This document shows, piece after piece, positions 1 to 37,011 of a stretch of 64,000 nucleotides of DNA. Under the pieces are notes generated by a model. It ran no database searches. It was not told the DNA's origin and saw only the letters and a program-made list of their open reading frames with translations. This DNA comes from Desulfovibrionaceae bacterium (GTDB lineage: Bacteria; Desulfobacterota; Desulfovibrionia; Desulfovibrionales; Desulfovibrionaceae), in assembly GCA_015709315.1 (NCBI GenBank), contig JACCQI010000001.1:98435-162434 (forward strand), written 5' to 3'. Position 1 is the stretch's first letter. Each line of letters opens with the position of its first letter. The translations under genes and the position numbers were made by a program.

Positions 1-173
1 CGTCGAAGTCGCCCAGCCGATGCCCGTTGTGGAACGCCTCCCCGGACGGCAGGTCCAGGCGGACCTGTTCCATGTCGATGAGCACGCGCTCCTGTCCCGT
101 CCTTTCGGCCACGGTGTCGGCCAGCTTTTCCGAGGACCAGCCCCCCGGGGTTCCTATGACGCCTATTTTCACG
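1..173 (-). CDS. ATP-grasp (RimK-like) enzyme, N-terminal fragment; the gene runs off the window start
   Basis: A minus-strand frame opens with GTG at 173, preceded by GGAG with a 7-nt spacer. It reads VKIGVIGTPGGWSSEKLADTVAERTGQERVLIDMEQVRLDLPSGEAFHNGHRLGDFD to the window edge. It starts 21 nt after the upstream kinase stop. It is missing from the ORF track because it is truncated. Confidence 0.5.
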
Positions 174-194
174 AAGTCGCTCCTTGGTTTGCGG

Positions 195-1850
195 CTAATA
201 GTAGAGGATGTCCTCGGGCAGGGCGAACCGCTCCCAGTCGCCGTCGTCGAACTGATGGATTTTTTCCAGCAGGAACAGGGATCGGTTGTACATCTCCTTG
301 GCAAAGCCGAAGTTCAACTCGAACCGGGTGGAGGTGTAGAAGGACCGCGCCAGGGCAAAGGCCATGCGCGCCTGGAAGGTGGCGTCCCCGTGCTGTCGGG
401 CGAACCCCTTCACGAACCCGTGGAACTGGCTGATGACGTTGTTGATGCGCTCGCGGTGCTGCTGGTCGAACAGGGGCATGCGGAAATTGGAGACCAGGAA
501 GACCGAGGCGTCCTGGATGTAGTCGAAATCGCGGGAGCGGTACAGGTCGATGTAGTGTACCTGCTGCGCCTCGTGGTTGTAGACCACGTTGTTGATGTTG
601 AAGTCGCCGTGGATGAACACCGAGAAGGGGGCTTCCAGGCCCCGCTCCAGCTCGGCGCACCGCCTGAGCAGATCCTCGGAGGAGAGCACCTCGGCGTCGC
701 CCAGGTGCTTGGGCATCCGGCGGAATTCCGGGTGGGTCTGGAGCACGCCGTCCAGCCGGGCCATGAGCTGCCCGATGTAGTTGGTCCTGACGGGCAGCTT
801 TTCCAGGGTGGTGGTCCAGGTCTCCAGCACCGTGGATTCGAAGATGAACAGGGCGTTGCGGACGTATTCGTCGTCCCCGGACAGGATGAGTTCGTCCAGG
901 GTGCAGCCGTTGAGGAACTCCACCAGCATGGCGCCCTTGCCGTTGTCCTCGTGGAAGCCGTATATCTCGGCCACCAGGCCGGGGAACGTCCGCCGCCAGC
1001 GGTTGATGGACTCCCGTTCCTTGCGGATCTTCTCCAGGCTGCCCTCCTTGTAGATGGACCCCTGTTTCCGCTCCTCGGGCGACAGCTCCTCGCCGTCCCG
1101 CTTTTCCACCTTGCCGATGCGGCAGCCGGAGCGGGTCCCCCAGATGGCGCGGAAGTCGATGTCCGCGAAGCTGTCGCTGAACCCGGACTTGGACAGGGTC
1201 TGCTGCAGGGCCTCGAACTGCTCGATCTTGATCCGCTCGCCGAGCATGGAAAAGATGATGGCCTCGCCGATGTTGAGCAGGGCGTCGCCCACGCGCTCGA
1301 AATAGCGGAAGATGAACAGGGCGGTGATCAGGGACTGGGCGTCGCGCCCCAGGCCGATCTCGTTCATGATGCGGTCGAAGTGGACCTTGTAGGCGGCGTC
1401 GAGCAGCGGCTCGGCCTTGCAGATGTAGAGCGCCTTGGACATGTTCTCGTTCCGGAAGGCGTCCAGGATGGACCCCAGCCGGTCCAGGATGGTGTCGAAC
1501 ATGTCGTCGTAGTCGTACTTCTTGATGAACGACTGGTCATCGAGATAGCGCATCTGCTTGACGATGTTGACGAAGTAGTCGGCGATCTTCTCCAGGTTCA
1601 CGCACATGACCTGGATGGCGCGGATGCGGTTGATCTGGTTGGTGTCCAGGGACTTGTCCAGGTGGATGCGGGAATAGCACTTGTTCTCGATGATCGTTTT
1701 CAGGTTGTCGATGTAATCGTCCCGGTTGGTGATCTTCGCGTGCTGCTTCCTGGTCGGCTCGTCCAGGAAACGCCTGGTCGACCGGGCCTGGTTCTCCACT
1801 TCCAGGACGATGAACTTGAAGTTTTCGTCCAGCCCTTCAAAGGTCAGCAT
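195..1850 (-). CDS. Two-domain protein: N-terminal PhoU-like repeats fused to an aminoglycoside/choline-kinase (APH) type kinase domain
   Basis: Track ORF 195..1991, trimmed to the ATG at 1850 (MLTFEGLDENFKF), which lies 5 nt after the upstream gene's stop. PhoU-like motif FIFRYFERVGDALLNIGEAII. Kinase catalytic-loop motif FIHGDFNINNVVY followed by YIDLYRSRDFDY. Confidence 0.8.
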   Translation of the reverse strand: MLTFEGLDENFKFIVLEVENQARSTRRFLDEPTRKQHAKITNRDDYIDNLKTIIENKCYSRIHLDKSLDTNQINRIRAIQVMCVNLEKIADYFVNIVKQMRYLDDQSFIKKYDYDDMFDTILDRLGSILDAFRNENMSKALYICKAEPLLDAAYKVHFDRIMNEIGLGRDAQSLITALFIFRYFERVGDALLNIGEAIIFSMLGERIKIEQFEALQQTLSKSGFSDSFADIDFRAIWGTRSGCRIGKVEKRDGEELSPEERKQGSIYKEGSLEKIRKERESINRWRRTFPGLVAEIYGFHEDNGKGAMLVEFLNGCTLDELILSGDDEYVRNALFIFESTVLETWTTTLEKLPVRTNYIGQLMARLDGVLQTHPEFRRMPKHLGDAEVLSSEDLLRRCAELERGLEAPFSVFIHGDFNINNVVYNHEAQQVHYIDLYRSRDFDYIQDASVFLVSNFRMPLFDQQHRERINNVISQFHGFVKGFARQHGDATFQARMAFALARSFYTSTRFELNFGFAKEMYNRSLFLLEKIHQFDDGDWERFALPEDILYY

Positions 1851-1855
1851 ACCGC

Positions 1856-2122
1856 CTACTCCACCGTGAGACCGGTGCTTTCGCACTTCCTGCCCGAGCC
1901 GGAGTCCTTCCACTCGACCTTGATGGAGAGTTTGTTGGCGTTGCCCTTTTTCTTGGCCTTGACCGTGAAGTTGAGCAGCCCCATGGGACACAGCTCGATG
2001 GCGTCCTCGTCGGTGGACAGGGTGATGGACCCCTTGTCGAAGCCGTCGGTGAGCGAAGCCAGGAAATCCTTGATGGTGCGACAGTCCTGCAGCGAATCGA
2101 AAATGAATTTTTCTTCAGCCAT
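1856..2122 (-). CDS. Small (88 aa) amphi-Trp-domain-like protein
   Basis: ORF MAEEKFIFDSLQDCRTIKDFLASL...FTVKAKKKGNANKLSIKVEWKDSG...GLTVE. The size, the KAK..IKVEW strand and the operon context match my recollection of the amphi-Trp domain family. It is tightly packed between the kinase and PHP-like genes. Confidence 0.6.
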   Translation of the reverse strand: MAEEKFIFDSLQDCRTIKDFLASLTDGFDKGSITLSTDEDAIELCPMGLLNFTVKAKKKGNANKLSIKVEWKDSGSGRKCESTGLTVE

Positions 2123-2137
2123 GTATTCCCCTAGATG

Positions 2138-3295
2138 CTAGCCGGCGAGCCGGTCCCTGTATGCCTCGATGATGACGCGGCGGCTCTGGTTGTTGACGAT
2201 GAGTCTCTTGCGGATGGACAGGTCGTCCCAGGCGGGCTGGTAGCCGATCTCGCGGGCCGCCTTGACCGGGTCCTGCTGGTCCACGGGCTTGGTCTTCTCG
2301 CCCATGTGGCAGTCGTCGCCCATGAAGATGAGCATGTCCCGGCCCGAGGTCCGCCGTTCGTTCTGCTCGTTGACCACGGAGATGAGAAATTCCGTGTACT
2401 CCTGGGATTGCGGGTTCCAGACCTCGATGCCGTCCACGTCGTAGTTGCGCAGCAGGATGGGCCAGAATTGCTCCGGGTGCGGGATGACGATGCAGCCGCC
2501 CAGGGAGCGCGCCTCCTCGATGATCTCGCTGGCCCGGTAGAAGAAGGACAGGTCGAAGCCGCGCTTGACGATCTTCTTGACCGCCTTGAGGTAGCCCTGG
2601 ACGCGGTCCACCGCGTTGTCGCCCAGCTCCGGGCGCATGGCGTCGAACCAGTTGCGCAGCAGCTTGTTCTTCACGGACAGCCGGGGCACCTCGGTCCAGT
2701 TGTCGTCCAGGAGCGTTTCGATCCTGGTCACGTTGGCGCGAACGAATTCGATCATGTCCGCGTCCGCGCCCACGGACCTGGCCGCCTCGTTGATGCGGTC
2801 CTCGTTCGGCTTGGTGATGGTGTGCATGAAGTCGAAGAGCTGGCCGGACCGGTACTTGAAGGTGTGGGCGAGCATGGACTTGAGCACTCCCGCCTGCCCG
2901 ACCCGGTCGTTGGCGAAGTGGAGCAGAAGCTGCACTTTGCGGTTGAAGCCCGAGGAAAAGCAGTCCACCTCCACCCCGGAGTAGTCGCCCCAGCTTATGA
3001 GAACGTTGTGCTGGGTCGGGATGAGCAGCTCGTCCGTGCGGTTGGGGAACATTGCGTCCACCCGTTGCCGGATGTGCTTCATGTCCACGAATTCCGGGTG
3101 CCAGTGGACGGCCAGCAGGGCCTCCTGGCGGATGTACACGTCCGTGGGGGTGACGACCTGGTCGATCTGCCACTGTTCCAGGTCGGTGGACACCACCCGG
3201 AAAAAACGGTCGCGGTCCTCCCGGGTGATCTCTTCCGGGGACCGCGCCGGGAGGGTCCGGCATTTCGGGCAGTCGTCGCTTTTCACTATTTTCAT
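2138..3295 (-). CDS. Hypothetical 385-aa protein with PHP-like (metal-dependent phosphoesterase) motifs
   Basis: Long ORF with coding-like composition. Motifs LAVHWHPEF (HxH), CIVIPHPEQF, DGIEVWNP and MGDDCHMG are spaced like PHP-domain metal ligands. The function call is tentative. Confidence 0.45.
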   Translation of the reverse strand: MKIVKSDDCPKCRTLPARSPEEITREDRDRFFRVVSTDLEQWQIDQVVTPTDVYIRQEALLAVHWHPEFVDMKHIRQRVDAMFPNRTDELLIPTQHNVLISWGDYSGVEVDCFSSGFNRKVQLLLHFANDRVGQAGVLKSMLAHTFKYRSGQLFDFMHTITKPNEDRINEAARSVGADADMIEFVRANVTRIETLLDDNWTEVPRLSVKNKLLRNWFDAMRPELGDNAVDRVQGYLKAVKKIVKRGFDLSFFYRASEIIEEARSLGGCIVIPHPEQFWPILLRNYDVDGIEVWNPQSQEYTEFLISVVNEQNERRTSGRDMLIFMGDDCHMGEKTKPVDQQDPVKAAREIGYQPAWDDLSIRKRLIVNNQSRRVIIEAYRDRLAG

Positions 3296-3319
3296 CGAAA
3301 CGCTCTCCGGCCGGGTGTT

Positions 3320-3835
3320 TCAATCATACTTGGCGTGGCACCGGGTCTTTTCGTGGATAAGGGCGTCCACGGCCCGGTGCAGCTTCTCCATGTCGCCGTC
3401 TTCGAACGCCTCGGCCAAGCCGTCGCAGGCCCGCATGTAGCTCTCATAGTATTCGTCCCCGTATCCGGGGTAGGTGACCATGAGGGCGGAGTCGGCCAGG
3501 AAGGATTCCACGGCCTCGGCCGGGGGCGTCCGGTCTTCGTGGATCATTTTGACGATGACCTTGAAGCTGGTCTTCATCCGTTTTTTGAGGCTGGAATATT
3601 TCGGCTTGGCGGGCGTTTCGCCGCCCTCGTCCTCCTCGGAGGGGAGGCAGGCGTCCGGCACCTTGATCTTCGCCTTGAGGTGCAACTGACCGAACTCCTC
3701 CTTCACGCCGATCTTCATTTTCTTGAACGCATCGACGCATTCAAGCTCGTCCGAACCCCCGTTTTCCAGGGCGTCGGCAAGGCGGCGGAAAAACGCGGCC
3801 AGTTCCGTGCGGTCAACATACTTGCTTACCTTCAT
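3320..3835 (-). CDS. 171-aa protein with an amphi-Trp-like N-terminus and an XXXCH-type C-terminus (…HEKTRCHAKYD)
   Basis: First gene of the cassette. The N-terminal part (…EEFGQLHLKAKIKVPD) parallels the 88-aa protein's FTVKAKKK…IKVEW. Next comes an acidic/Pro linker, then a C-terminal helical region ending in RCH. Confidence 0.6.
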   Translation of the reverse strand: MKVSKYVDRTELAAFFRRLADALENGGSDELECVDAFKKMKIGVKEEFGQLHLKAKIKVPDACLPSEEDEGGETPAKPKYSSLKKRMKTSFKVIVKMIHEDRTPPAEAVESFLADSALMVTYPGYGDEYYESYMRACDGLAEAFEDGDMEKLHRAVDALIHEKTRCHAKYD

Positions 3836-3997
3836 GTCGGTCCTTGTCGGTTGAGGAAAAAGGAAAGGTGTTTGTACCTATACGTCGAGGAAGGAGTACA
3901 TCTCAATGGCCGTATCCGAATTGTAACAAAACGTAACATTGATACCCGTCAGGATATGGCGGGAGGGCGGCGCGAAGAAACGCCGCATGAGGGGAAA

Positions 3998-4030
3998 CGC
4001 GGGCCGGACCTGTGCCGGGTCCGGCCCGCG
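3998..4030 (-). terminator. Rho-independent terminator candidate after the oxidoreductase gene
   Basis: 13-bp perfect stem cgcgggccggacc / ggtccggcccgcg with a 7-nt loop. On the minus strand it is followed by TTTCCCCTCAT. Confidence 0.5.
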
Positions 4031-4074: not shown

Positions 4075-5079
4075 TCAGCAGCGCACCCAGGTCCCATCCC
4101 CGGCGCTCTTGATGAGCCGTTCCAGGACCTGCATGTTGGCGTAGGCGTCGTTCAAGGTCGCGGGCGGGCGCGTGTCGTCGAGGATGGCCCTGGCAAAGGC
4201 GTCCGCCTGGAGGGAGTACTGGTCGCAGGTGTCGAAGGTGATGGTCCTGAGCTTCTCCCCGTCCGGGGCGTGGTCCCGCTGGAGGATGATGGCGCACGGC
4301 CTGTCCGGGGGCGCGTTGAAGGGGATGAGTATCTCGATGCGGCCTTCGGTGCCGAAGATGTTCACCCGCTGATGGTCGGCCAGTTGGGTGGAGCAGGTGA
4401 AGGAGGATATCCTCCCCCGGAATTCGAGCATGCCGGAGAAGAGGCGGTCCGTGCCGAAATCCGGGTCGCGGTCCATGAAGCCGATGCCCCGCGCGGGTTC
4501 GGCGTTGAAGATGAACCGGGACAGGGAGATGTTGTAGCAGCCGATGTCCATCATGGCCCCGCCGCCGATGTCCGCCTTGTTGCGGATGTTGGCCGGGTCG
4601 TCGTTGAAGTAGGAGAAGAAGGACTGGATGGTCCTCAGTTCGCCGATGGCGCCTTCGTCCACCAGCCGCTTGGCCTCGATCCACTGCGGGTGGTGGCGGT
4701 ACATGAACGCCTCCATGATCTTCAGGTCCGGGTAACGGCCCTCGGCGTTGATCAGGGCGTTGGCCTCGACGGTGTTCAGGCCGATGGGCTTCTCGCAGAG
4801 CACGTGCTTGCCCGCCTCCAGGGACTTGACGGCCCACGGGACGTGCAGGTGGTTGGGCAGGGGGATGTACACGGCGTCGATGTCCGGGTCGGCCAACAGC
4901 GCCTCGTAGGAGCCGTACGCCTTGGGGATGGACAGCGCGTCCGCGGCCGCGCGGGCGGCGGCCTCGTCGCGGGAGCCGATGGCGGTCACCCTGCACAGTT
5001 CCGAACTCTGGATGGCGGGTATGACCTTGGTGCGGCCGATCTTGGCCGTGGACAGGACGCCGAAGCGGATTCTTTCCAT
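4075..5079 (-). CDS. Gfo/Idh/MocA family NAD(P)-dependent oxidoreductase
   Basis: Track ORF 4075..5175, trimmed to the ATG at 5079 (MERIRFGVLSTAKIGRTKVIPAI). Rossmann-type N-terminus and the family motif GKHVLCEKP. Confidence 0.85.
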   Translation of the reverse strand: MERIRFGVLSTAKIGRTKVIPAIQSSELCRVTAIGSRDEAAARAAADALSIPKAYGSYEALLADPDIDAVYIPLPNHLHVPWAVKSLEAGKHVLCEKPIGLNTVEANALINAEGRYPDLKIMEAFMYRHHPQWIEAKRLVDEGAIGELRTIQSFFSYFNDDPANIRNKADIGGGAMMDIGCYNISLSRFIFNAEPARGIGFMDRDPDFGTDRLFSGMLEFRGRISSFTCSTQLADHQRVNIFGTEGRIEILIPFNAPPDRPCAIILQRDHAPDGEKLRTITFDTCDQYSLQADAFARAILDDTRPPATLNDAYANMQVLERLIKSAGDGTWVRC

Positions 5080-5286
5080 ATGCGTTTTCCCTCGCAGGTT
5101 GATGGTGTCCGATTTTGCCCAGTATAGCGGTTGTCCCGCCCCGCGCAAGGAGAAAACCGCCTGGAAGCGGCGCATGGGCCGGGAAGGCGATGCGCGCGGA
5201 AGGCCGGGAGAAGCGCGTTTGGCTGCCGTGTTTTTCCTATGGAGGCGTTGACACGTTTTTTTGAATGTGTTTTTTTTGTGACGTTA

Positions 5287-5300
5287 CGCAAACGTTTGCG
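5287..5300. promoter_or_regulatory. Perfect 14-bp palindrome CGCAAACGTTTGCG, a LacI/GalR-type operator candidate
   Basis: The sequence is self-complementary and has the AACGTT core typical of LacI-family operators. It lies 83 bp upstream of the galT ATG, in the divergent intergenic region. A half-site repeat, AGCGTTTGCG, follows at 5303..5312. Confidence 0.6.
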
Positions 5301-5382
5301 GTAGCGTTTGCGGCCCGGCCCGGCAGGGCGTGAAGCACGGTTTCGCGCCGTCGCGCCGGAGGAAATTCTTGACGGGGGACGC

Positions 5383-6426
5383 ATGCCTTTCAACGAGCAT
5401 CCGCACAGGCGGCTGAATCAACTGACCGGCGAATGGGTGCTGGTGTCCCCGCACAGGACCAAGCGGCCCTGGCAGGGGCAGCGGGAAGAGCCGGACCTGG
5501 CCGGGCTGCCCGCATACGATCCCGACTGCTACCTTTGTCCCGGCAACGCGCGGGCGGGCGGGGCGGTCAATCCCGACTACGCCGGAACCTTCGCCTTCAA
5601 TAACGATTTCGCCGCGCTCCTGCCCGACCCGCCGGAAGGCGGCCCGTCCACGGGGAGCGATCTGCTGGTGGCCGAGGCCGAGCCGGGCATCTGCCGGGTG
5701 GTTTGCTACTCCCCGCGCCACGACCTGACCATGGCCCGCCTGGGCGTGGACCGGGCGGCCGGGGTGGTGGACCTGTGGTGCCGGGAATTCGCCGATCTCG
5801 GCGGCCGGGAGAACATCGGCTACGTCCAGATTTTCGAGAACCGGGGCACGATCATGGGCTGCTCCAACCCCCATCCCCACGGCCAGATATGGGCCACCCG
5901 CTCCGTGCCCATGTACCCGGCCAACGAGGACCGGCATCAGGCCGTGCGCCTGCGGGAAAAGGGCAGTTGCCTGCTTTGCGACTACCTTGCCCTGGAGCGC
6001 GAATCCGGCGAGCGCGTCATCTTTGAAAACGACTCCTTCGTCGCCCTGGTGCCGTTCTGGGCGCTGTGGCCGTTCGAGGCCATGATCCTGCCCAGGGACC
6101 ATATGGCGACCATCCTGGACATGACCCCGGCGCAGCGGCGCGACCTGGCCGACGCCATGGTCCGGCTCAACGTGCGCTACGACAATATTTTCCAGACCTC
6201 GTTCCCCTATTCCATGGGCATTCATCAGGCCCCTGTGGACGGAGGGGAGTATCCCCACTGGCATTTTCACATCCACTACTATCCGCCGCTTTTGCGCTCC
6301 CGGTCGGTCAGGAAATTCATGGTCGGCTACGAAATGATGGCCATGCCCCAGCGGGACCTGACCCCCGAGGCCGCCGCGGACCGCATCCGCGAGCAGCCGG
6401 AAGTCCATTACCTGGAGGGCCGATGA
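5383..6426 (+). CDS. galT: Galactose-1-phosphate uridylyltransferase (class I)
   Basis: MPFNEHPHRRLNQLTGEWVLVSPHRTKRPWQG, the zinc motif CYLCPGN and the active-site motif HPHGQIWA. Start trimmed from track ORF 5308. Confidence 0.9.
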   Translation: MPFNEHPHRRLNQLTGEWVLVSPHRTKRPWQGQREEPDLAGLPAYDPDCYLCPGNARAGGAVNPDYAGTFAFNNDFAALLPDPPEGGPSTGSDLLVAEAEPGICRVVCYSPRHDLTMARLGVDRAAGVVDLWCREFADLGGRENIGYVQIFENRGTIMGCSNPHPHGQIWATRSVPMYPANEDRHQAVRLREKGSCLLCDYLALERESGERVIFENDSFVALVPFWALWPFEAMILPRDHMATILDMTPAQRRDLADAMVRLNVRYDNIFQTSFPYSMGIHQAPVDGGEYPHWHFHIHYYPPLLRSRSVRKFMVGYEMMAMPQRDLTPEAAADRIREQPEVHYLEGR

Positions 6427-7724
6427 CCGCGACCCGGCTGGACGAATGGCTCGACGCCGTGGACGGCGGGCGTCTGGACGCGACCCTGGCCGAACTGTAC
6501 GGCGAGGGTCAGGCGACGGACCAGCGGCGGCGGTATCGCTCCCTGCTCGCCCGGCTCGGGGAAGGGGCCGGGGACCGGGAATGCGTGCTGGTGACCACGC
6601 CGGGCCGCACCGAGCTGGGCGGCAACCATACCGACCACAACAACGGCGTGGTCCTGGCCGCGGGCGTGCATTTCGACATTTTGGCAGCGGCCGCTCCTAC
6701 CGGGGACGGGGTCATCCGGGTCCGGTCCGAGGGCTTCCCGGAGACGGTGGCGGTGCGCCTTGACGAGCTTTCCCCGCGCAAAGGCGAAGCGGGGACGCCC
6801 GCTGCCCTGGTGCGCGGCGTTGCCGCTGGTTTCGCCGACCGGGGGTGGGCCGTCGGCGGCTTCGACGCCTGCGTGGCCGGGGAGGTGCCGCTGGGCGCGG
6901 GCCTGAGTTCCTCGGCGGCCTTCGAGGTCTGCATGGGCCAGGTCCTGAACCAGCTCTACAACGGCGGCCAACGCACGCCCCTGGAACTGGCCGTGGTCGG
7001 GCGCGCGGCCGAGAACACGTATTTCGGCAAGCCGTGCGGCCTCATGGACCAACTGGCCTGCGCGGCACAGGGCATCCTGTCCATCGACTTCGCCGACCCC
7101 GAGGCCCCGGCGGTCCGGCAGGTGGATTTCGACTTCGCGGCCACGGACTATCGGCTCGTGGTGGTGGATACCGGCGGCAGCCACGCGGACCTGACCCCGG
7201 AGTACGCGGCCATCCCCGTGGAGATGGAGCGGGCGGCCAAGGTGCTTGGCCGGGACAAGGCGCGCGGCCTGACCGTGGCCCGGGTCCTGGACAACGCCGC
7301 GCGCATCCGCGAGGAGGCCGGGGACCGGGCGCTGCTCAGGCTGGTGCATTTCATCGAGGAGACGGACCGGGCCGTGCAACAGGCCGAGGCCCTGGACCGG
7401 GGCGACATGGCCCGCTACCTGGATTTGGTCCGGCAATCCGGGGACTCCTGCTGGCGGCTCAACCAGAACTGCATCTCCACCACGGACTATCTGGACCAGC
7501 CCATTCCCGTGGCCCTGGCCCTGACCGAGCGGTTCCTCGGGGGCGACGGTGCCTGGCGCATCCAGGGCGGGGGCTTTGCCGGGACCATCCAGGCATACGT
7601 GCCGAAGGAGCGCGTGGATGCCTATGCCGCGTACATGGAAGGCGTGTTCGGCAGGGGGGCCGTAATGCCCGTCCGCATCCGCCGTCCCGGTTTCGACGTC
7701 CTCCGTCCCGGAGGCCGCACATGA
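6423..7724 (+). CDS. galK: Galactokinase-family GHMP sugar kinase
   Basis: The ATG at 6423 overlaps the galT stop (ATGA). Motifs PGRTELGGNHTDHNNG and the GHMP ATP loop PLGAGLSSSAA. Confidence 0.85.
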   Translation: MTATRLDEWLDAVDGGRLDATLAELYGEGQATDQRRRYRSLLARLGEGAGDRECVLVTTPGRTELGGNHTDHNNGVVLAAGVHFDILAAAAPTGDGVIRVRSEGFPETVAVRLDELSPRKGEAGTPAALVRGVAAGFADRGWAVGGFDACVAGEVPLGAGLSSSAAFEVCMGQVLNQLYNGGQRTPLELAVVGRAAENTYFGKPCGLMDQLACAAQGILSIDFADPEAPAVRQVDFDFAATDYRLVVVDTGGSHADLTPEYAAIPVEMERAAKVLGRDKARGLTVARVLDNAARIREEAGDRALLRLVHFIEETDRAVQQAEALDRGDMARYLDLVRQSGDSCWRLNQNCISTTDYLDQPIPVALALTERFLGGDGAWRIQGGGFAGTIQAYVPKERVDAYAAYMEGVFGRGAVMPVRIRRPGFDVLRPGGRT

Positions 7725-8743
7725 GCTCCCTGACCATCAAGGACCTGGCACGCAAGCTGGGCGTTTCCCCGTCCACGGTGTCGCGCGCGCTTTCCGACCA
7801 CCCGGACATCAGCCCGGCCACCAAGCGGCGCGTGGCCGAGGCGGCCGCGAAATACCACTACCAGCCCAACCAGCTCGCCCAGTCCCTGCAGAAACGGCGC
7901 AGCTCCACCATCGGCGTCATTGTGCCGGAAATCCGGCATCACTTTTTTTCCACGGTCATCTCCGGCATCGAGGAGATCGCCTACGAGCACGGCTTCACCA
8001 TCATGGTCTGCCAATCGGGCGAGACCCTGGCCCGCGAGATCATCAACACCCGGGCCCTGATCGCCAACCGGGTGGCCGGGCTGCTCATCGCCATTTCCTC
8101 CGAGACCGTGCGTTACGACCATCTGGCGGCGGTCATGAGGTACGGGGTGCCCCTGGTCCAGTTCGACCGCGTGGTGGAGGACCTGGACACGGGCAAGGTG
8201 GTGGTGGACGACTATGCGGCCGCGCGCGGGGCCGTGGACCATCTGGTGGAGGCCGGATACCGGCGCATCGGCCATATGGCCGGGCGGGAGGGCATCGCCT
8301 TGAACCGCCACCGCTTCGAGGGGTACCGGGACGCCCTGCGCGGCCACGGCCTCGAAGTGGAGGAGAAATTCCACTTGTACGGCGGGTTCCGCGAAGAGGA
8401 CGGACGCAAGGGGGCCGAGCGCTACCTGGCCCTGGACGAACTGCCCGAGGCCATCCTGGCCATCAACGACCCGGTGGCCGTGGGGCTGTTCACCCGGTTC
8501 AAGGAGGCCGGGGTGCGCATCCCGGACGACGTGGCCCTGGTGGGTTTTTCCGACACCCCGGCGGCCGCGCTCATCGAGCCGGCCCTGACCACGGTCTACC
8601 AGCCCGCCCTGGAAATGGGGCGCGCGGCCGTGTCCCTGCTGCTCAAGCAGTTCGAGGCCGGCAAGGACTTTGCGCCCGAGACCGTGACCCTGTCCACCCG
8701 GCTCCTGGTGCGCGGCTCCAGCGACCCGAGGAGGCGGCCATGA
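7721..8743 (+). CDS. LacI/GalR family transcriptional repressor
   Basis: The ATG at 7721 overlaps the galK stop (ATGA). N-terminal HTH TIKDLARKLGVSPSTVSRALSDHPDISPATKRRV, followed by a periplasmic-binding-protein-like sugar-binding fold. Confidence 0.9.
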   Translation: MSSLTIKDLARKLGVSPSTVSRALSDHPDISPATKRRVAEAAAKYHYQPNQLAQSLQKRRSSTIGVIVPEIRHHFFSTVISGIEEIAYEHGFTIMVCQSGETLAREIINTRALIANRVAGLLIAISSETVRYDHLAAVMRYGVPLVQFDRVVEDLDTGKVVVDDYAAARGAVDHLVEAGYRRIGHMAGREGIALNRHRFEGYRDALRGHGLEVEEKFHLYGGFREEDGRKGAERYLALDELPEAILAINDPVAVGLFTRFKEAGVRIPDDVALVGFSDTPAAALIEPALTTVYQPALEMGRAAVSLLLKQFEAGKDFAPETVTLSTRLLVRGSSDPRRRP

Positions 8744-9777
8744 GCATCCGGCGCGAACCGTGGGGCGAGGCCGGGGCGCACCCCGTGGACCTGTACACCC
8801 TGACCTCGGCGAGCGGCATGGAGGTCTCGGTGGCCACCTACGGCGGCGTGGTCGTCCGGCTGGTCCTGCCCGACGGGACCGGCGTCACCCATGGTTACGA
8901 CGCCCTTGACGGCTACCTGGCGGACCCGTGCTATTTCGGCTGCCTGGTGGGGCGGGTGGGCAACCGCATCGGCAACGCCCGTTTCACCCTGGACGGCGTG
9001 GAGTACGCCCTGGACCAAAACCACGGCAGACACCACCTGCACGGCGGAGCCAAGGGGTTCCACACCCGCGTCTGGGAGGCCGAGGCCGGGGAGACCCCGG
9101 ACGGCCCGAAACTGCGCCTCTCCCGGACCAGCCCGGAAGGCGAGGGGGGATATCCCGGCACCGTGGAGGCCAGGGTGGAATACACCCTGCTGGAAAACGG
9201 CCTGCGCCTGGATTTTTTCGCCACCGTTGACAAGGCCACTCCGGTGTCCATGACCAACCACAGCTATTTCAACCTCTCCGGGGACCTCGGGGCGAGCTGT
9301 CTCGGCCACCGGCTGGCCATCCCGGCCGGGCGCATTCTCGAGACCGACGCGGACCTGATTCCCACGGGCGCGCTCATGGACGTGACGGGGACGCCCTTCG
9401 ACTTCCGGGATGGGGCCGCCGTCGGGGCGCGCATCGGCGAGGACCATCCGGCACTGCTCGCCGGGCGGGGGTACGACCACTATTTCGTGCTGGACGACGT
9501 TTTCGGCGGGCTTGCGAAGGGTGCCGAAGCCGTTGATCCGGCGTCCGGCCGGACCCTAACGGTCTGGACAACCGCGCCCGGCGTCCAGTTTTATTCCGGC
9601 AACCACATCCCGGCGGGCCTTTCCGGCCGGGACGGGGTTTGCTACGGGCCGTGTTGCGGATTTTGCCTGGAAACTCAAGGCTTTGTAGATGCGCCGAATC
9701 GCCCGGAATTTCCGCCGGTGACGCTCAAGGCCGGGACCGCAGGGAAACTGACAATAATGTACACGTTCATCGCGTAA
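8740..9777 (+). CDS. galM: Aldose 1-epimerase (galactose mutarotase)
   Basis: The ATG overlaps the regulator's stop (ATGA). Motifs [24 protein letters not shown] and NHSYFNL are typical of mutarotases. Confidence 0.9.
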
Positions 9778-9814
9778 TGGCGTATGGTGCAATAAACAGG
9801 AGAGACGGTCAGAT

Positions 9815-10912
<1,098 letters not shown>

Positions 10913-33920: not shown

Positions 33921-34004
33921 ATCGGCCCCGGCCGCGTGTCCGGGGCCGGCTTCACGGCGTTCCGCGACCCTTTAGGAGCGGGATGGCGTGGTTGTGATCT
34001 GGCT

Positions 34005-34313
34005 CTAGATACCCAGGTTGTAGGACGCGACGTATGCGCCGACCCGTTTGCTGGAATCGGCGATACGCTTGCCGAGCGACCGTTTGTACTCGTCGAGATC
34101 CAACTGCCTGCGGGCCACGCCGCCTTCCATGGCGGCCTTGGCCACGGCCACGGACACGTACTCGATGAGACGCAGGTCCAGCGCCTTGGGAATGACGTAG
34201 TCCGGGCCGAATTCAAGCTTGTCCACGCCGAACGCCTCGCACACGTATTTCGGGGCCTCGGTCTTGGCCAGGTCGGCCAGGGCCTGGGCCGCGGCCAGCT
34301 TCATTTCCTCGGT
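34005..34313 (-). pseudogene. Orphan duplicated 3' fragment of the malic-enzyme gene (last ~102 codons)
   Basis: Track ORF 34005..34304 (MKLAAAQALADLAKTEAP…ASYNLGI) is identical to the C-terminus of the full gene at 34337..35659. No properly spaced ribosome-binding site is present. Confidence 0.8.
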
Positions 34314-34336
34314 GATGGCGTGGTTGTGATCTGGCT

Positions 34337-35659
<1,323 letters not shown>

Positions 35660-35757
35660 GCTAGTCTCCTTGATAGTGGTTTGCATTGTTGAGTATCCGG
35701 CCGACCGGGCGTTTTCCCATGAGCCTTCGGGCCGGTAAAAGTCCTTGCGTTGCCCGC

Positions 35758-37011
35758 TTAGCCCCTGGCCACGTCCGGGAGCGTGGAGCCGCCGTAGGGC
35801 ATGACCACGATCCGCGCCGCTTCGCCGAGTTTTTCCCGGGCCTTTTTCAGGGCCGTTTCCATGTCGGGGCACGGGGTGACGAACATGTTCGCCATGACCG
35901 CGTCATCCAGCTCGGAAACCATGTACACGTCGGCCTTTTTTTCGGTCATGGCGATGGCCGCGGCCTTGTGCCCGCCCAACTGGAATTTGGAACGCACCCT
36001 GTCGATGAGGTCGTCCGGGCAGCCCGCCTCGTTGAGCCACTGCTCGAAAACGGCCGATCCGTAGCCCTCCTGGCAGGCGGCCGCCCAGATGATGACCCCG
36101 CCGGGGCGCACCGCGTAGGTGGCGTTGTCCAGGGCCTTCTGGGCCTGGTAGATGTTCAGGTCCTTGGGGTAGCCGCCAGGGGAAACCACGACGATGTCCG
36201 CGCCCCGGTCAAGGGGAAAACGGTACAGCTTGTCGAGGTAGGCGCAGCCCGCCCTGTGAGCCTTGATGCAGTCCCCGGCCGTGGCGTGCAGCACGGTCTT
36301 GTCCGGGGCAAGGACGACGTTGAGGATCATGTCGACCGAGAGGAAGCCGAGCAGTTCTTCCAAGTCGTCCCGGACCGGATTGCCGTTCAGGTTTCCCGTG
36401 GCCGCCTTTTCCTCCACCATGAAGGTGTGGTTGGCCTGGATGGTCTTGTGCGAGCAGACGCCCGGCACGATGGCCTTGACGCCGCCGCTGTACCCGGCGA
36501 AGTAGTGATATTCGATATTTCCCAGGCAGATGCGCCGGGATGCTTCGGCCACCGGCCGGAAGACTTCGAAGGGAGTGCCGTTGGAGGAAGTTCCCACCAG
36601 GACCACGTCCTCGGGTTCCATGTCGATGCAGCGGTACCGTTTTACGATGTCGGTTCCAACGAGATGCTCGATTTCTTCCTGCGTGTGCTTTCTGTGCGCC
36701 CCGAGGGCAAAGACGATGAACACGTCCTCGGTGCGGACACCGGCCCGGTGCAATTCCTCAAGGAGCGGAGGCAGCATCTTGTAGGAAGGACAGGGCCGGG
36801 TGACGTCGCTGGTCACGATGCACACGCTTTGGCCGGGGCCGAAGGTATCCCGTATCGTCCCGGTGCCGATGGGATTTTTCAGAGCGGAACGGATCAGTTC
36901 CGCTTCGCTTTCCGGGAAGGTTATGTCGTTGAGCTTGAGCACGGCGTCGATCCGGGCCTCGTCAATGTCGGCCTCGATGGCGCCTTTGCCGTAACCAAGG
37001 GTGATTTTCAT
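35758..37011 (-). CDS. larA: LarA-family nickel-pincer-dependent 2-hydroxyacid racemase/epimerase (DUF2088-type)
   Basis: MKITLGYGKGAIEADIDEARI…VCIVTSDVTRPCPS…ALGAHRKHT…GNIEYHYFAGYSGG…KAHRAGC resemble lactate racemase LarA motifs. The substrate is not determinable from sequence. Confidence 0.75.
   Translation of the reverse strand: MKITLGYGKGAIEADIDEARIDAVLKLNDITFPESEAELIRSALKNPIGTGTIRDTFGPGQSVCIVTSDVTRPCPSYKMLPPLLEELHRAGVRTEDVFIVFALGAHRKHTQEEIEHLVGTDIVKRYRCIDMEPEDVVLVGTSSNGTPFEVFRPVAEASRRICLGNIEYHYFAGYSGGVKAIVPGVCSHKTIQANHTFMVEEKAATGNLNGNPVRDDLEELLGFLSVDMILNVVLAPDKTVLHATAGDCIKAHRAGCAYLDKLYRFPLDRGADIVVVSPGGYPKDLNIYQAQKALDNATYAVRPGGVIIWAAACQEGYGSAVFEQWLNEAGCPDDLIDRVRSKFQLGGHKAAAIAMTEKKADVYMVSELDDAVMANMFVTPCPDMETALKKAREKLGEAARIVVMPYGGSTLPDVARG

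Follow-up and report, generated by a model that had tools for sequence, protein, structure and literature searches.

A GAK-system operon of a Desulfovibrionaceae bacterium and its probable place in the phosphate-starvation regulon

In a 64-kb stretch of DNA from a Desulfovibrionaceae bacterium (hereafter the window; the window copy or window protein is the one encoded there, and L-numbers denote comparison loci), positions 1–3938 almost certainly hold the promoter and the first five genes of a canonical GAK-system operon in a Pseudodesulfovibrio-like genome. This multi-gene system has already been defined computationally and named by NCBI, is known solely as a set of hidden Markov model (HMM) names, and counts the window locus as an ordinary member. 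Based on comparative genomics, we infer that the phosphate-starvation (Pho) regulon probably includes the operon. This is indicated by four independent observations: a kinase of the cluster is fused to a PhoU domain, pst genes adjoin the cluster in relatives, a PhoB-box-like repeat lies in the promoter, and boxes of this kind also precede pho genes.

Our literature search returned no paper on the GAK system, on the function of amphi-Trp proteins or on the TIGR accessions, and only a proteomics table of Dissulfuribacter thermophilus, in which an amphi-Trp protein ranks with the 20 of highest abundance (PMC13490349). A preliminary description of this DNA, made from the sequence alone, had likewise cited no assigned function. 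To judge from the papers searched, the case for the Pho regulon, the cytochrome-like reading of the XXXCH protein, the assignment of a diverged PHP fold to the 385-aa protein, and the inclusion of the PHP-like protein and the PhoU-kinase in the core of the system appear to be new. Placement in the Pho regulon turns GAK from an annotation curiosity into an experimentally testable question, and phosphate limitation shapes the physiology of sulfate reducers in anoxic sediments; a dedicated, Pho-controlled cluster that encodes an esterase, a ligase and two kinases would form a new branch of the phosphate response. The two fold assignments open concrete biochemical assays for two proteins that carry no functional annotation.

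The GAK operon and its conserved neighbourhood

The family models named in the preliminary description were matched by the window proteins, and the GAK membership proposed there was borne out. The XXXCH protein scored 108.4 bits against TIGR04358 (cut-off 40) over profile positions 1–90 of 90, and NCBI names an identical protein "GAK system XXXCH domain-containing protein". The amphi-Trp protein scored 66.1 bits against TIGR04354 (cut-off 31) and 30.5 bits against Pfam PF20068 (cut-off 27), and the 57 residues of the ATP-grasp enzyme that lie in the window matched positions 1–55 of 287 of TIGR04356 at 52 bits (model cut-off 300), their sole family match.

All five genes are co-directional on the minus strand (Table 1), with a GGAG-like ribosome-binding site ahead of every start codon, as read directly from the sequence. 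The intergenic gaps are 24, 15, 5 and 22 nt, which agrees with the earlier reading except for the last value, given there as 21. Gaps of 5–24 nt together with 4-nt overlaps suggest translational coupling. The five genes of the cassette as first described are all present; however, the fifth is cut after 57 codons by the window edge, so the cassette is the promoter-proximal part of an operon of 7–11 genes, which is found complete in Pseudodesulfovibrio indicus and some 160 further loci. Beyond the window, judging from related clusters, the operon would continue with genes for HprK-related kinase B and a CofD-like protein, usually followed by further amphi-Trp genes and, in only some clades, by a gene for a ParA-like ATPase. 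Because the upstream neighbour in Pseudodesulfovibrio indicus (L002) is a different gene on the opposite strand, the operon begins at the XXXCH gene. No Rfam family, tRNA or riboswitch was detected in or near the operon, and no sigma-70 consensus promoter was found at it.

Table 1. Coordinates of the GAK operon features in the window
Feature	Position	Strand	Remark
Gene 1, GAK-system XXXCH protein	3835..3320	-	171 aa
Gene 2, PHP-like protein	3295..2138	-	385 aa
Gene 3, amphi-Trp protein	2122..1856	-	88 aa
Gene 4, PhoU-kinase	1850..195	-	551 aa
Gene 5, GAK ATP-grasp enzyme	172..1	-	GTG start at 172; first 57 codons, remainder past the left window edge
PhoB-box-like direct repeat	3938..3923	-	TGTTAC-GTTT-TGTTAC; starts 103 nt upstream of the XXXCH ATG
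Terminator-like hairpin	3983..4002	-	follows the Gfo/Idh/MocA oxidoreductase gene (5175..4075) upstream; sets the 5' limit of the GAK transcription unit

Using the PHP-like protein as marker and one genome per species, we found relatives encoded in at least 363 species-level genomes, and mapped the neighbourhoods of the best 80 of these together with 80 further metagenome loci. The order PHP-like, 88-aa amphi-Trp, PhoU-kinase, ATP-grasp, HprK-related kinase B recurred in about 160 loci, even where the identity of the PHP-like protein had fallen to 32%. All of these loci belong to Desulfobacterota wherever their taxonomy is known, as do all 80 genomic ones. Component counts were limited to loci with a sufficiently long contig. 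Downstream of the PHP-like gene, the genomic loci carried the 88-aa gene (74/79), the PhoU-kinase (73/73), the ATP-grasp gene (70/70) and HprK-related kinase B (61/64); the CofD-like gene was found in 51/57, the XXXCH gene in 63/76, extra amphi-Trp genes in 32/53 and a ParA gene in 7/53. The metagenome loci agreed with these counts, except that XXXCH was present in only 24/56 (absent from 32/56); CofD was absent from 13/34 metagenomic clusters of sufficient length. The arrangement is conserved far beyond chance, which upholds the conservation of the neighbourhood that the preliminary description had proposed to check. The named GAK components share the core with the PHP-like enzyme and the PhoU-kinase, which belong to it no less than they do; XXXCH is optional.

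The complete P. indicus cluster illustrates the operon beyond the window. Its proximal genes encode XXXCH, the PHP-like protein, the 88-aa amphi-Trp protein and the PhoU-kinase; its middle genes the ATP-grasp enzyme (TIGR04356, 449 bits), HprK-related kinase B (TIGR04355, 545 bits) and the CofD-like protein (TIGR04357, 524 bits); and its distal genes an amphi-Trp protein of 156 aa, a 68-aa protein, a ParA/MinD-like ATPase and an amphi-Trp protein of 150 aa. In this distal part (L002, 16309-18207), one of the two longer amphi-Trp proteins bears a Lys/Ala/Pro-rich, histone-H1-like tail, ...ADKKAAKPAKKQ, and the distal genes as a group (long amphi-Trp, 68-aa protein, ParA/MinD-like ATPase) are reminiscent of cargo-positioning systems. 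The most divergent GAK cluster examined (L085, 784-3027) has two tandem PHP-like paralogues of 365 and 379 aa instead of one, with a split CorA-like gene downstream and an ArsC-like gene upstream.

A locus of different composition, L090 (6915-12020), contains ppk1, ppx, a PHP-like gene (38% identity) and a GAK ATP-grasp gene (378 bits, TIGR04356); it has no amphi-Trp, kinase or CofD genes, and a GGDEF-EAL gene adjoins on the opposite strand. The ppk-ppx adjacency did not recur in the 80 metagenome loci and was seen once in about 170 loci overall, so we keep it as an anecdote. PHP-like homologues also occur alone, outside GAK clusters: two (P0122 and P0123; L088) are 500–517 aa long, and in their N-terminal extension of about 140 residues no fused domain could be recognised.

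Several observations concern the surroundings of the operon. The Gfo/Idh/MocA oxidoreductase gene (minus strand), galT-galK-lacI-galM and then a gene for a MalK-like ATP-binding cassette ATPase adjoin it at window positions 4075-10912, and P. indicus shares these neighbours. A distant PHP-like homologue outside GAK clusters (L086) lies near genes for GalT, a GHMP kinase and an epimerase, which may be coincidence. Elsewhere in the window (33982-34652), a malic-enzyme-like gene (34337..35872, minus strand) has its 3' end, along with downstream sequence, repeated in a perfect (100%) 332-bp tandem duplication, which yields a second, identical 99-codon C-terminal open reading frame at 34005..34304. 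Either the metagenome-assembled genome (MAG) contains an assembly artefact here or the duplication is very recent.

Promoter boxes and linkage to phosphate genes

The direct repeat ahead of the XXXCH gene is a probable operator for an OmpR/PhoB-type response regulator. TGTTAC-N4-TGTTAC has a single match in the window, and the same repeat was found 90–95 nt upstream in the orthologous promoters of L002, L006, L009, L010, L011, L012, L136, L142 and L161, within flanks that are otherwise unconserved. With at most one mismatch allowed, 2.2 Mb of fetched loci gave 18 matches, 10 of them directly upstream of XXXCH. The Desulfovibrio PhoB box, determined by DAP-chip (affinity-purified DNA on a chip) and electrophoretic mobility shift assays, consists of tandem (c/t)GTnAC half-sites (Rajeev et al. 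2011, PMC3333781). The text of that paper gives a 6-bp repeat with a 4-bp spacer, whereas all sites in its tables have an 11-bp period (6-bp cores with a 5-bp spacer), a mismatch that matters for motif scanning. The half-sites in the window equal the Desulfovibrio half-site exactly, with a period of 10 bp against the 11 bp published.

We scanned for the canonical box, [CT]GTNAC-N5-[CT]GTNAC, and compared 71.5 kb of GAK promoter zones with 1.97 Mb of other sequence. The promoter zones gave 18 exact matches in 13 loci against 13 elsewhere, a 38-fold enrichment; for the 10-bp variant the enrichment was 23-fold, and with spacers of 3 or 6 bp, taken as controls, there were 0 matches in the promoter zones. 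In L008 an 11-bp box occupies the homologous -90 position, where relatives carry the 10-bp box, and canonical boxes stand at the same promoter position in L005, L021 and L022. Most of the remaining exact boxes precede pstS, genes of PhoB-type regulators (TIGR02154 the best family, 257–261 bits) or PhoH2-like genes, and thus serve as a positive control within the same genomes.

Two kinds of neighbouring gene were seen near such boxes. In two Desulfobacterales loci (L052, 16813-18231; L054, 7746-9080), a gene for a PhoH2-like RNA helicase lies directly downstream of the GAK cluster, each behind an exact PhoB box. Three Desulfovibrionaceae loci (L027, 2974-3687; L069, 4860-5573; L081, 7019-7726) carry, some kb upstream of the cluster, a gene for a PhoB-type response regulator whose own promoter contains PhoB boxes, with pstB and/or phoU after it.

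Linkage to the pst genes was found in several families. In a Desulfococcus MAG (L074), pstS-pstC-pstA-pstB-phoU, verified with Pfam, stands immediately upstream of the cluster on the same strand. Upstream sequence of 6 kb or more was available for 90 loci; in 13 of these at least four of the five pstSCAB-phoU genes lay just upstream, and in about 24 some pst genes lay within 9 kb. The linked loci come from Desulfococcaceae/Desulfobacteraceae, Desulfobulbales and Desulfovibrionaceae, and their pst proteins are strongly diverged. The PhoU-fused kinase itself is present in every cluster. The preliminary description had guessed at phosphate responsiveness from the PhoU domain, and the boxes, their enrichment and the linkage to pst and phoB have strengthened that guess. 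No GAK genes could be identified among the published PhoB targets of D. vulgaris, a strain for which carriage of the GAK system is not established, and a literature search with ND132 locus tags gave nothing usable.

Proteins encoded by the operon

The 385-aa protein gave no match at E<=0.01 in Pfam or NCBIfam and none in a sequence search of the PDB, and an exhaustive phmmer search of 1.84 billion representatives returned 94 clusters (50% identity), all of its own family. Its AlphaFold2 model, built with 61 homologues, reached a predicted local distance difference test score (pLDDT) of 88.8 and a predicted template modelling score (pTM) of 0.85, and contains a large helical insertion at about residues 129–265. 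In Foldseek nothing was significant (E<0.001) except PHP phosphoesterases, namely RNase AM of Vibrio cholerae (9etk) and BAD_1165 (3e0f/3o0f), with E values of 3e-5 to 1.2e-4, probability 1.0 and template modelling (TM) scores of 0.45–0.56. Enzymes of the BAD_1165/Cv1693 type are 3',5'-bisphosphate nucleotidases, acting on nucleotide phosphoesters. The motifs that had been quoted for this protein correspond to H64-W-H66, P272-H-P-E275 and D327-D-C-H330. H64, H66, E68, H96, E109, D111, H126, H273, E275, D288, E291, D327, D328 and H330 are invariant, and the candidate metal ligands, H64-x-H66, H96, E109, D111, H126, H273, E275 and D328-x-H330, are kept down to 28% identity, as are D288, E291 and the three quoted motifs. 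By structure only, the protein is predicted to be a PHP-fold, metal-dependent phosphoesterase of a highly diverged, isolated family. The first reading of it as PHP-like is thus upheld by the fold and by conserved residues of ligand type, although the Pfam and NCBIfam PHP models are not matched.

The XXXCH protein was modelled (pLDDT 88.7) as an N-terminal beta-alpha-beta-beta domain (residues 1–58), a disordered acidic linker and four helices (80–99, 106–119, 127–146 and 149–170). Its N-terminus was originally described as repeating the pattern of the 88-aa protein; the predicted topology is amphi-Trp-like, but hhalign gave a probability of only 41% against the amphi-Trp profile, so that residues 1–58 are at most weakly identified as a degenerate amphi-Trp-like domain. 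At the other end, C166-H167 is invariant within C-H-x-x-[YFH]-[KD]-end, at a fixed distance from the terminus (window copy ...TRCHAKYD). Almost all of the top ~50 Foldseek matches were cytochromes c' or b562 (probability ~1.0, TM ~0.6, root-mean-square deviation ~3 A, E 6e-3 to 0.1). A distant homologue carries a precomputed Pfam match to cytochrome b562, and among 46 members scanned, 6 matched Cytochrom_B562 (best E 2.6e-5) and 6 Cytochrom_C_2/Cytochrome C' (best 1.1e-3). The window protein gave a cytochrome Pfam E value of 0.19 over profile positions 81–120 of 121, the heme-motif helix, and the family profile matched many cytochromes c' in the PDB at E 0.1–1 over the same C-terminal stretch.

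A single-sequence search of the PDB with the 171-aa protein was empty, and hhalign of the family profile against E. coli b562 was not significant (local E 0.017, probability 2.7%), so the link to cytochromes rests on the Foldseek matches and on sub-threshold Pfam and PDB matches that are in register. The C-terminal domain looks like a four-helix bundle of the cytochrome c'/b562 kind in which the Cys-His of CXXCH survives: of that motif the first Cys is missing and only XXXCH is present, and the position of Cys166-His167 at the second Cys and the His explains the name of the family. The protein may be a heme binder, whether by one thioether or without a covalent bond. By inspection it has no signal peptide, its N-terminus being a folded domain, which would place it in the cytoplasm, out of reach of periplasmic maturation systems.

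In the GAK-specific amphi-Trp subfamily to which the 88-aa protein belongs, residues F6, Q12, D13, K59 and W71 are invariant, with S10 near-invariant. The N-terminal motif F6-x-x-[DE]-S10-x-Q12-D13 is particular to this subfamily, and the Lys-rich beta-hairpin and W71 are common to all amphi-Trp domains. Searches of the PDB with the sequence were empty, and those with the family profile returned only noise (FABP, YfiR, E>0.01). Across 76 orthologues of 87–99 aa, the C-terminal residue is S, T, R, E, D, N, Q, K, G or another, and besides the window copy just one orthologue ends in Glu. The ligation site used by RimK and LysX is the conserved C-terminal Glu of S6 and LysW, respectively. In view of the variability, we rejected the idea that the 88-aa protein is a C-terminal Glu substrate of the LysW/S6 type. 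Considering its conservation, Ser10 would be a better candidate modification site than the C-terminus.

In the 551-aa protein, a PhoU domain of two repeats (~7–210) is fused to an APH/EcKL-type kinase domain (~230–551), and both domains named in the preliminary description have Pfam matches. The first part matched PF01895 in 2 stretches (66 bits), and PhoU structures of the PDB aligned to residues 32–211; against the equivalog TIGR02135 it scored 78.8 bits (cut-off 130), so it is a PhoU domain and not PhoU itself. The kinase part lies just over the Pfam thresholds (APH 24.5 bits, cut-off 23.2; EcKL 27.5 bits, cut-off 22) and gave only a marginal APH(3') match in the PDB. Its G-x-RSGC loop, K-E-G, HGDFNxNN and IDL motifs are intact, without variation among 12 diverse orthologues; the motifs quoted for the cassette are all present, and invariant or nearly so across about 80 orthologues. 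The K of GAK is presumably the off-window HprK-related kinase B and not, as the preliminary description assumed, this kinase, to judge from the TIGRFAM text and the NCBIfam names.

The full-length ATP-grasp orthologue of P. indicus matched, after TIGR04356, MptN (145 bits), the RimK family (103) and LysX (81), with a weak CofF match; TIGR04187, a maturase of RiPPs (ribosomally synthesized and post-translationally modified peptides), was matched weakly, at 30 bits. The non-catalytic YvcK type (116 bits) is no further from the GAK CofD-like family (TIGR04357) than CofD is.

Models of action and comparison with known systems

The best explanation overall is a Pho-controlled, phosphate-responsive protein-modification module, to which we give an even chance. 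A mechanism that makes modification depend on phosphate status through the kinases, the esterase, the ligase, the CofD-like protein and XXXCH is put forward more tentatively, as one possibility. A PhoB-type regulator would probably bind the direct repeat upstream of XXXCH and turn the operon on under phosphate limitation. The PhoU-fused APH-type kinase and the off-window HprK-like kinase would phosphorylate the 88-aa amphi-Trp protein, the best site being Ser10 in the motif FxxES(L)QD, and the PhoU domain would report the status of inorganic phosphate (Pi). The established HprK/P family uses Pi for its reverse reaction, dephosphorylation, which would fit phosphate sensing by the HprK-like kinase as well. 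The PHP-fold phosphoesterase would reverse or trim the modification, and the MptN/RimK-like ligase and the CofD-like phosphotransferase might extend it, placing on a phosphoester-linked group an amino acid, probably glutamate, in amide linkage. XXXCH, which is optional, might add a heme, redox or gas-ligand input. The intact, invariant kinase motifs, the PHP fold with its ligand-type residues and the subfamily-specific F6/S10/Q12/D13 are consistent with this scheme. Its most specific form, a PhoB-controlled machine that writes a composite mark, of a kind not described before, on amphi-Trp proteins (a phosphoester-linked group capped with amide-linked glutamate, which the PHP enzyme erases), we consider doubtful. 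If it were true, sulfate reducers would couple phosphate status, and via XXXCH heme, redox or gas status, to, for example, translation or storage-granule dynamics.

Several points weigh against a Pho-controlled modification module. Every listed Desulfovibrio PhoB site has an 11-bp period and the window repeat one of 10 bp, so a different OmpR-family regulator could bind it. The Desulfococcaceae pstS promoters among the fetched loci lack the Desulfovibrio-type box, so that the motif model is lineage-limited and unusable in that family, and the enrichment counts overstate independence, since the loci are phylogenetically related and a few are duplicated across collections. The PHP-like/ATP-grasp pair of L090, which has no amphi-Trp gene, and the lone PHP-like homologues suggest that these enzymes may act on something besides amphi-Trp proteins, and MptN, the nearest characterised relative of the ATP-grasp enzyme, acts on a small molecule. 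Ser10 is proposed as a phosphosite solely from its conservation, and spending ATP on kinases in phosphate starvation would fit signalling but says nothing about the output.

The main rival is an unlikely one, in which the cluster makes a small molecule or cofactor tail resembling that of F420 or tetrahydromethanopterin, and amphi-Trp proteins are carriers, scaffolds or regulators. A kinase would supply a phosphorylated hydroxy-acid, the CofD-like protein a phosphodiester and the MptN/CofF-like enzyme an alpha-glutamate cap, with the PHP enzyme hydrolysing or editing the product. MptN as best characterised relative of the ATP-grasp enzyme, the weak CofF match, the core position of a CofD-family protein in the genomic loci, the amphi-Trp-free pair of L090 and the nucleotide phosphoesters on which the closest PHP structures act (RNase AM and the BAD_1165/Cv1693 type) all suit this pathway. 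However, a CofC-type nucleotidyltransferase, a transporter and other biosynthetic genes are not conserved in the cluster, the 88-aa gene is nearly always wedged among the enzymes and tightly coupled to them, and the CofD-like protein is both missing from over a third of the metagenomic clusters that are long enough and at least as close to YvcK. In the model of the preliminary description, the 88-aa and 171-aa proteins receive C-terminal Glu tails from the RimK-like ATP-grasp enzyme and/or are phosphorylated, and the PHP enzyme is the eraser. The clade of the ligase (RimK/LysX/MptN), the tight co-encoding of the small proteins and the conservation of the XXXCH C-terminus in sequence and in exact distance to the end speak for it, but the 88-aa C-terminus varies, with terminal Glu in 2/76, and XXXCH ends in K or D rather than E. 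Moreover, XXXCH is missing from 13/76 genomic and 32/56 metagenomic clusters where the ATP-grasp gene is constant in genomic loci, its Cys-His aligns with a heme-ligand position of a cofactor-binding four-helix bundle, which would explain the conservation without tailing, and L090 has the ligase with neither amphi-Trp nor any other small protein. Tailing of these proteins is therefore not supported, and we regard the model as improbable.

We give equally little weight to a granule or polymer function, in which Lys-rich amphi-Trp proteins would coat or nucleate polyphosphate (polyP), or would do so for a phosphorus-free anionic polymer made by the ATP-grasp enzyme (for example poly-alpha-glutamate) that replaces polyP in starvation, with the ParA-like ATPase positioning the body. 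The ppk1-ppx-PHP-like-ATP-grasp arrangement of L090, the presence, in Pseudodesulfovibrio clusters, of a ParA/MinD-like ATPase and of two more amphi-Trp proteins whose tails are rich in Lys, Ala and Pro, the abundance of an amphi-Trp protein in D. thermophilus (PMC13490349), and the loss of polyP granules with formation of other inclusions in phosphate-limited D. alaskensis G20 (PMC5193443) would accord with this. The single occurrence of the ppk-ppx adjacency and the rarity of ParA in genomic clusters do not, the G20 point presupposes a GAK system in G20, and no observation ties granules directly to amphi-Trp proteins. A further reading with a small share of the probability takes the repeat as the operator of another OmpR-family regulator and the pst adjacency as inherited synteny, the system answering mainly heme, redox or gas through XXXCH and not phosphate. 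The 10-bp period of the window repeat and the resemblance of the XXXCH domain to NO/CO-binding cytochromes c' would suit such a regulator; against it stand the canonical 11-bp boxes at the same promoter position in relatives (L008 at -90; L005, L021, L022), the pst linkage, which spans at least three families and strongly diverged pst proteins, and a PhoU fusion that is universal where XXXCH is optional. An anti-phage defence island or a RiPP cluster is very improbable: HprK-related kinases and ATP-grasp enzymes occur in RiPP pathways, and the ATP-grasp enzyme has its 30-bit match to TIGR04187, but PADLOC found no defence-system match in the cluster apart from a trivial P-loop one, no protease or exporter is encoded, the small proteins are folded conserved domains and not leader/core peptides, and the chromosomal context beside housekeeping phosphate genes is stable.

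Among known systems, TrpH/YciV-type PHP phosphoesterases, the best and sole significant structural matches of the 385-aa protein, share with it a putative HxH...DxH ligand pattern and an inserted helical domain; identity is 14–15%, the TM scores are low, there is no Pfam PHP match and the insertion is much larger in the 385-aa protein. With class II cytochromes c (c') and cytochrome b562, XXXCH shares a four-helix bundle and a Cys-His, four residues from its C-terminus, in register with CXXCH/His, and its conserved Met87 in helix 1 parallels the Met7 ligand of b562 in an alignment that is not statistically significant. XXXCH differs in being fused to an amphi-Trp-like domain and in that all its sequence matches fall under the family thresholds.

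Among pathways, the tail enzymes of F420 and tetrahydromethanopterin (CofD, CofF, MptN) resemble GAK in that it co-encodes a CofD-family protein and an MptN/CofF-like ATP-grasp enzyme of the alpha-L-glutamate-ligase type. The GAK scores lie far below the equivalog cut-offs (MptN 145 vs 350), CofC/CofE and deazaflavin or pterin genes are absent, the hosts are sulfate reducers, and protein-like partners and two kinases are present. RimK/S6 and LysX/LysW have a ligase of the same ATP-grasp clade, in the orthologue scores given above, with a small protein encoded beside it; the conserved C-terminal Glu of that partner is not found in the 88-aa protein, and LysZ/Y/J/K-type genes are absent from the cluster. 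Like HPr kinase/phosphorylase and HPr, GAK pairs an HprK-related P-loop kinase (off-window) with a small protein bearing a near-invariant Ser, although HPr has no sequence relation to the amphi-Trp protein and the GAK kinase matches HprK only at the P-loop region (26 bits). The Desulfovibrio Pho regulon (PhoB DVU1083, PMC3333781) differs from the window in the period of its sites, 11 bp instead of 10, and agrees with GAK loci in identical half-sites, promoter-proximal position and co-location with pstSCAB-phoU, phoB and phoH2. Closest of all is the GAK system as named (TIGR04356, TIGR04354, TIGR04358, TIGR04357, TIGR04355): the window proteins match its models, relatives hold the full set in the same order, and the window locus is a typical member without essential difference. 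That named set leaves out the PHP-fold esterase and the PhoU-APH kinase, both without a family model and both near-universal in these clusters.

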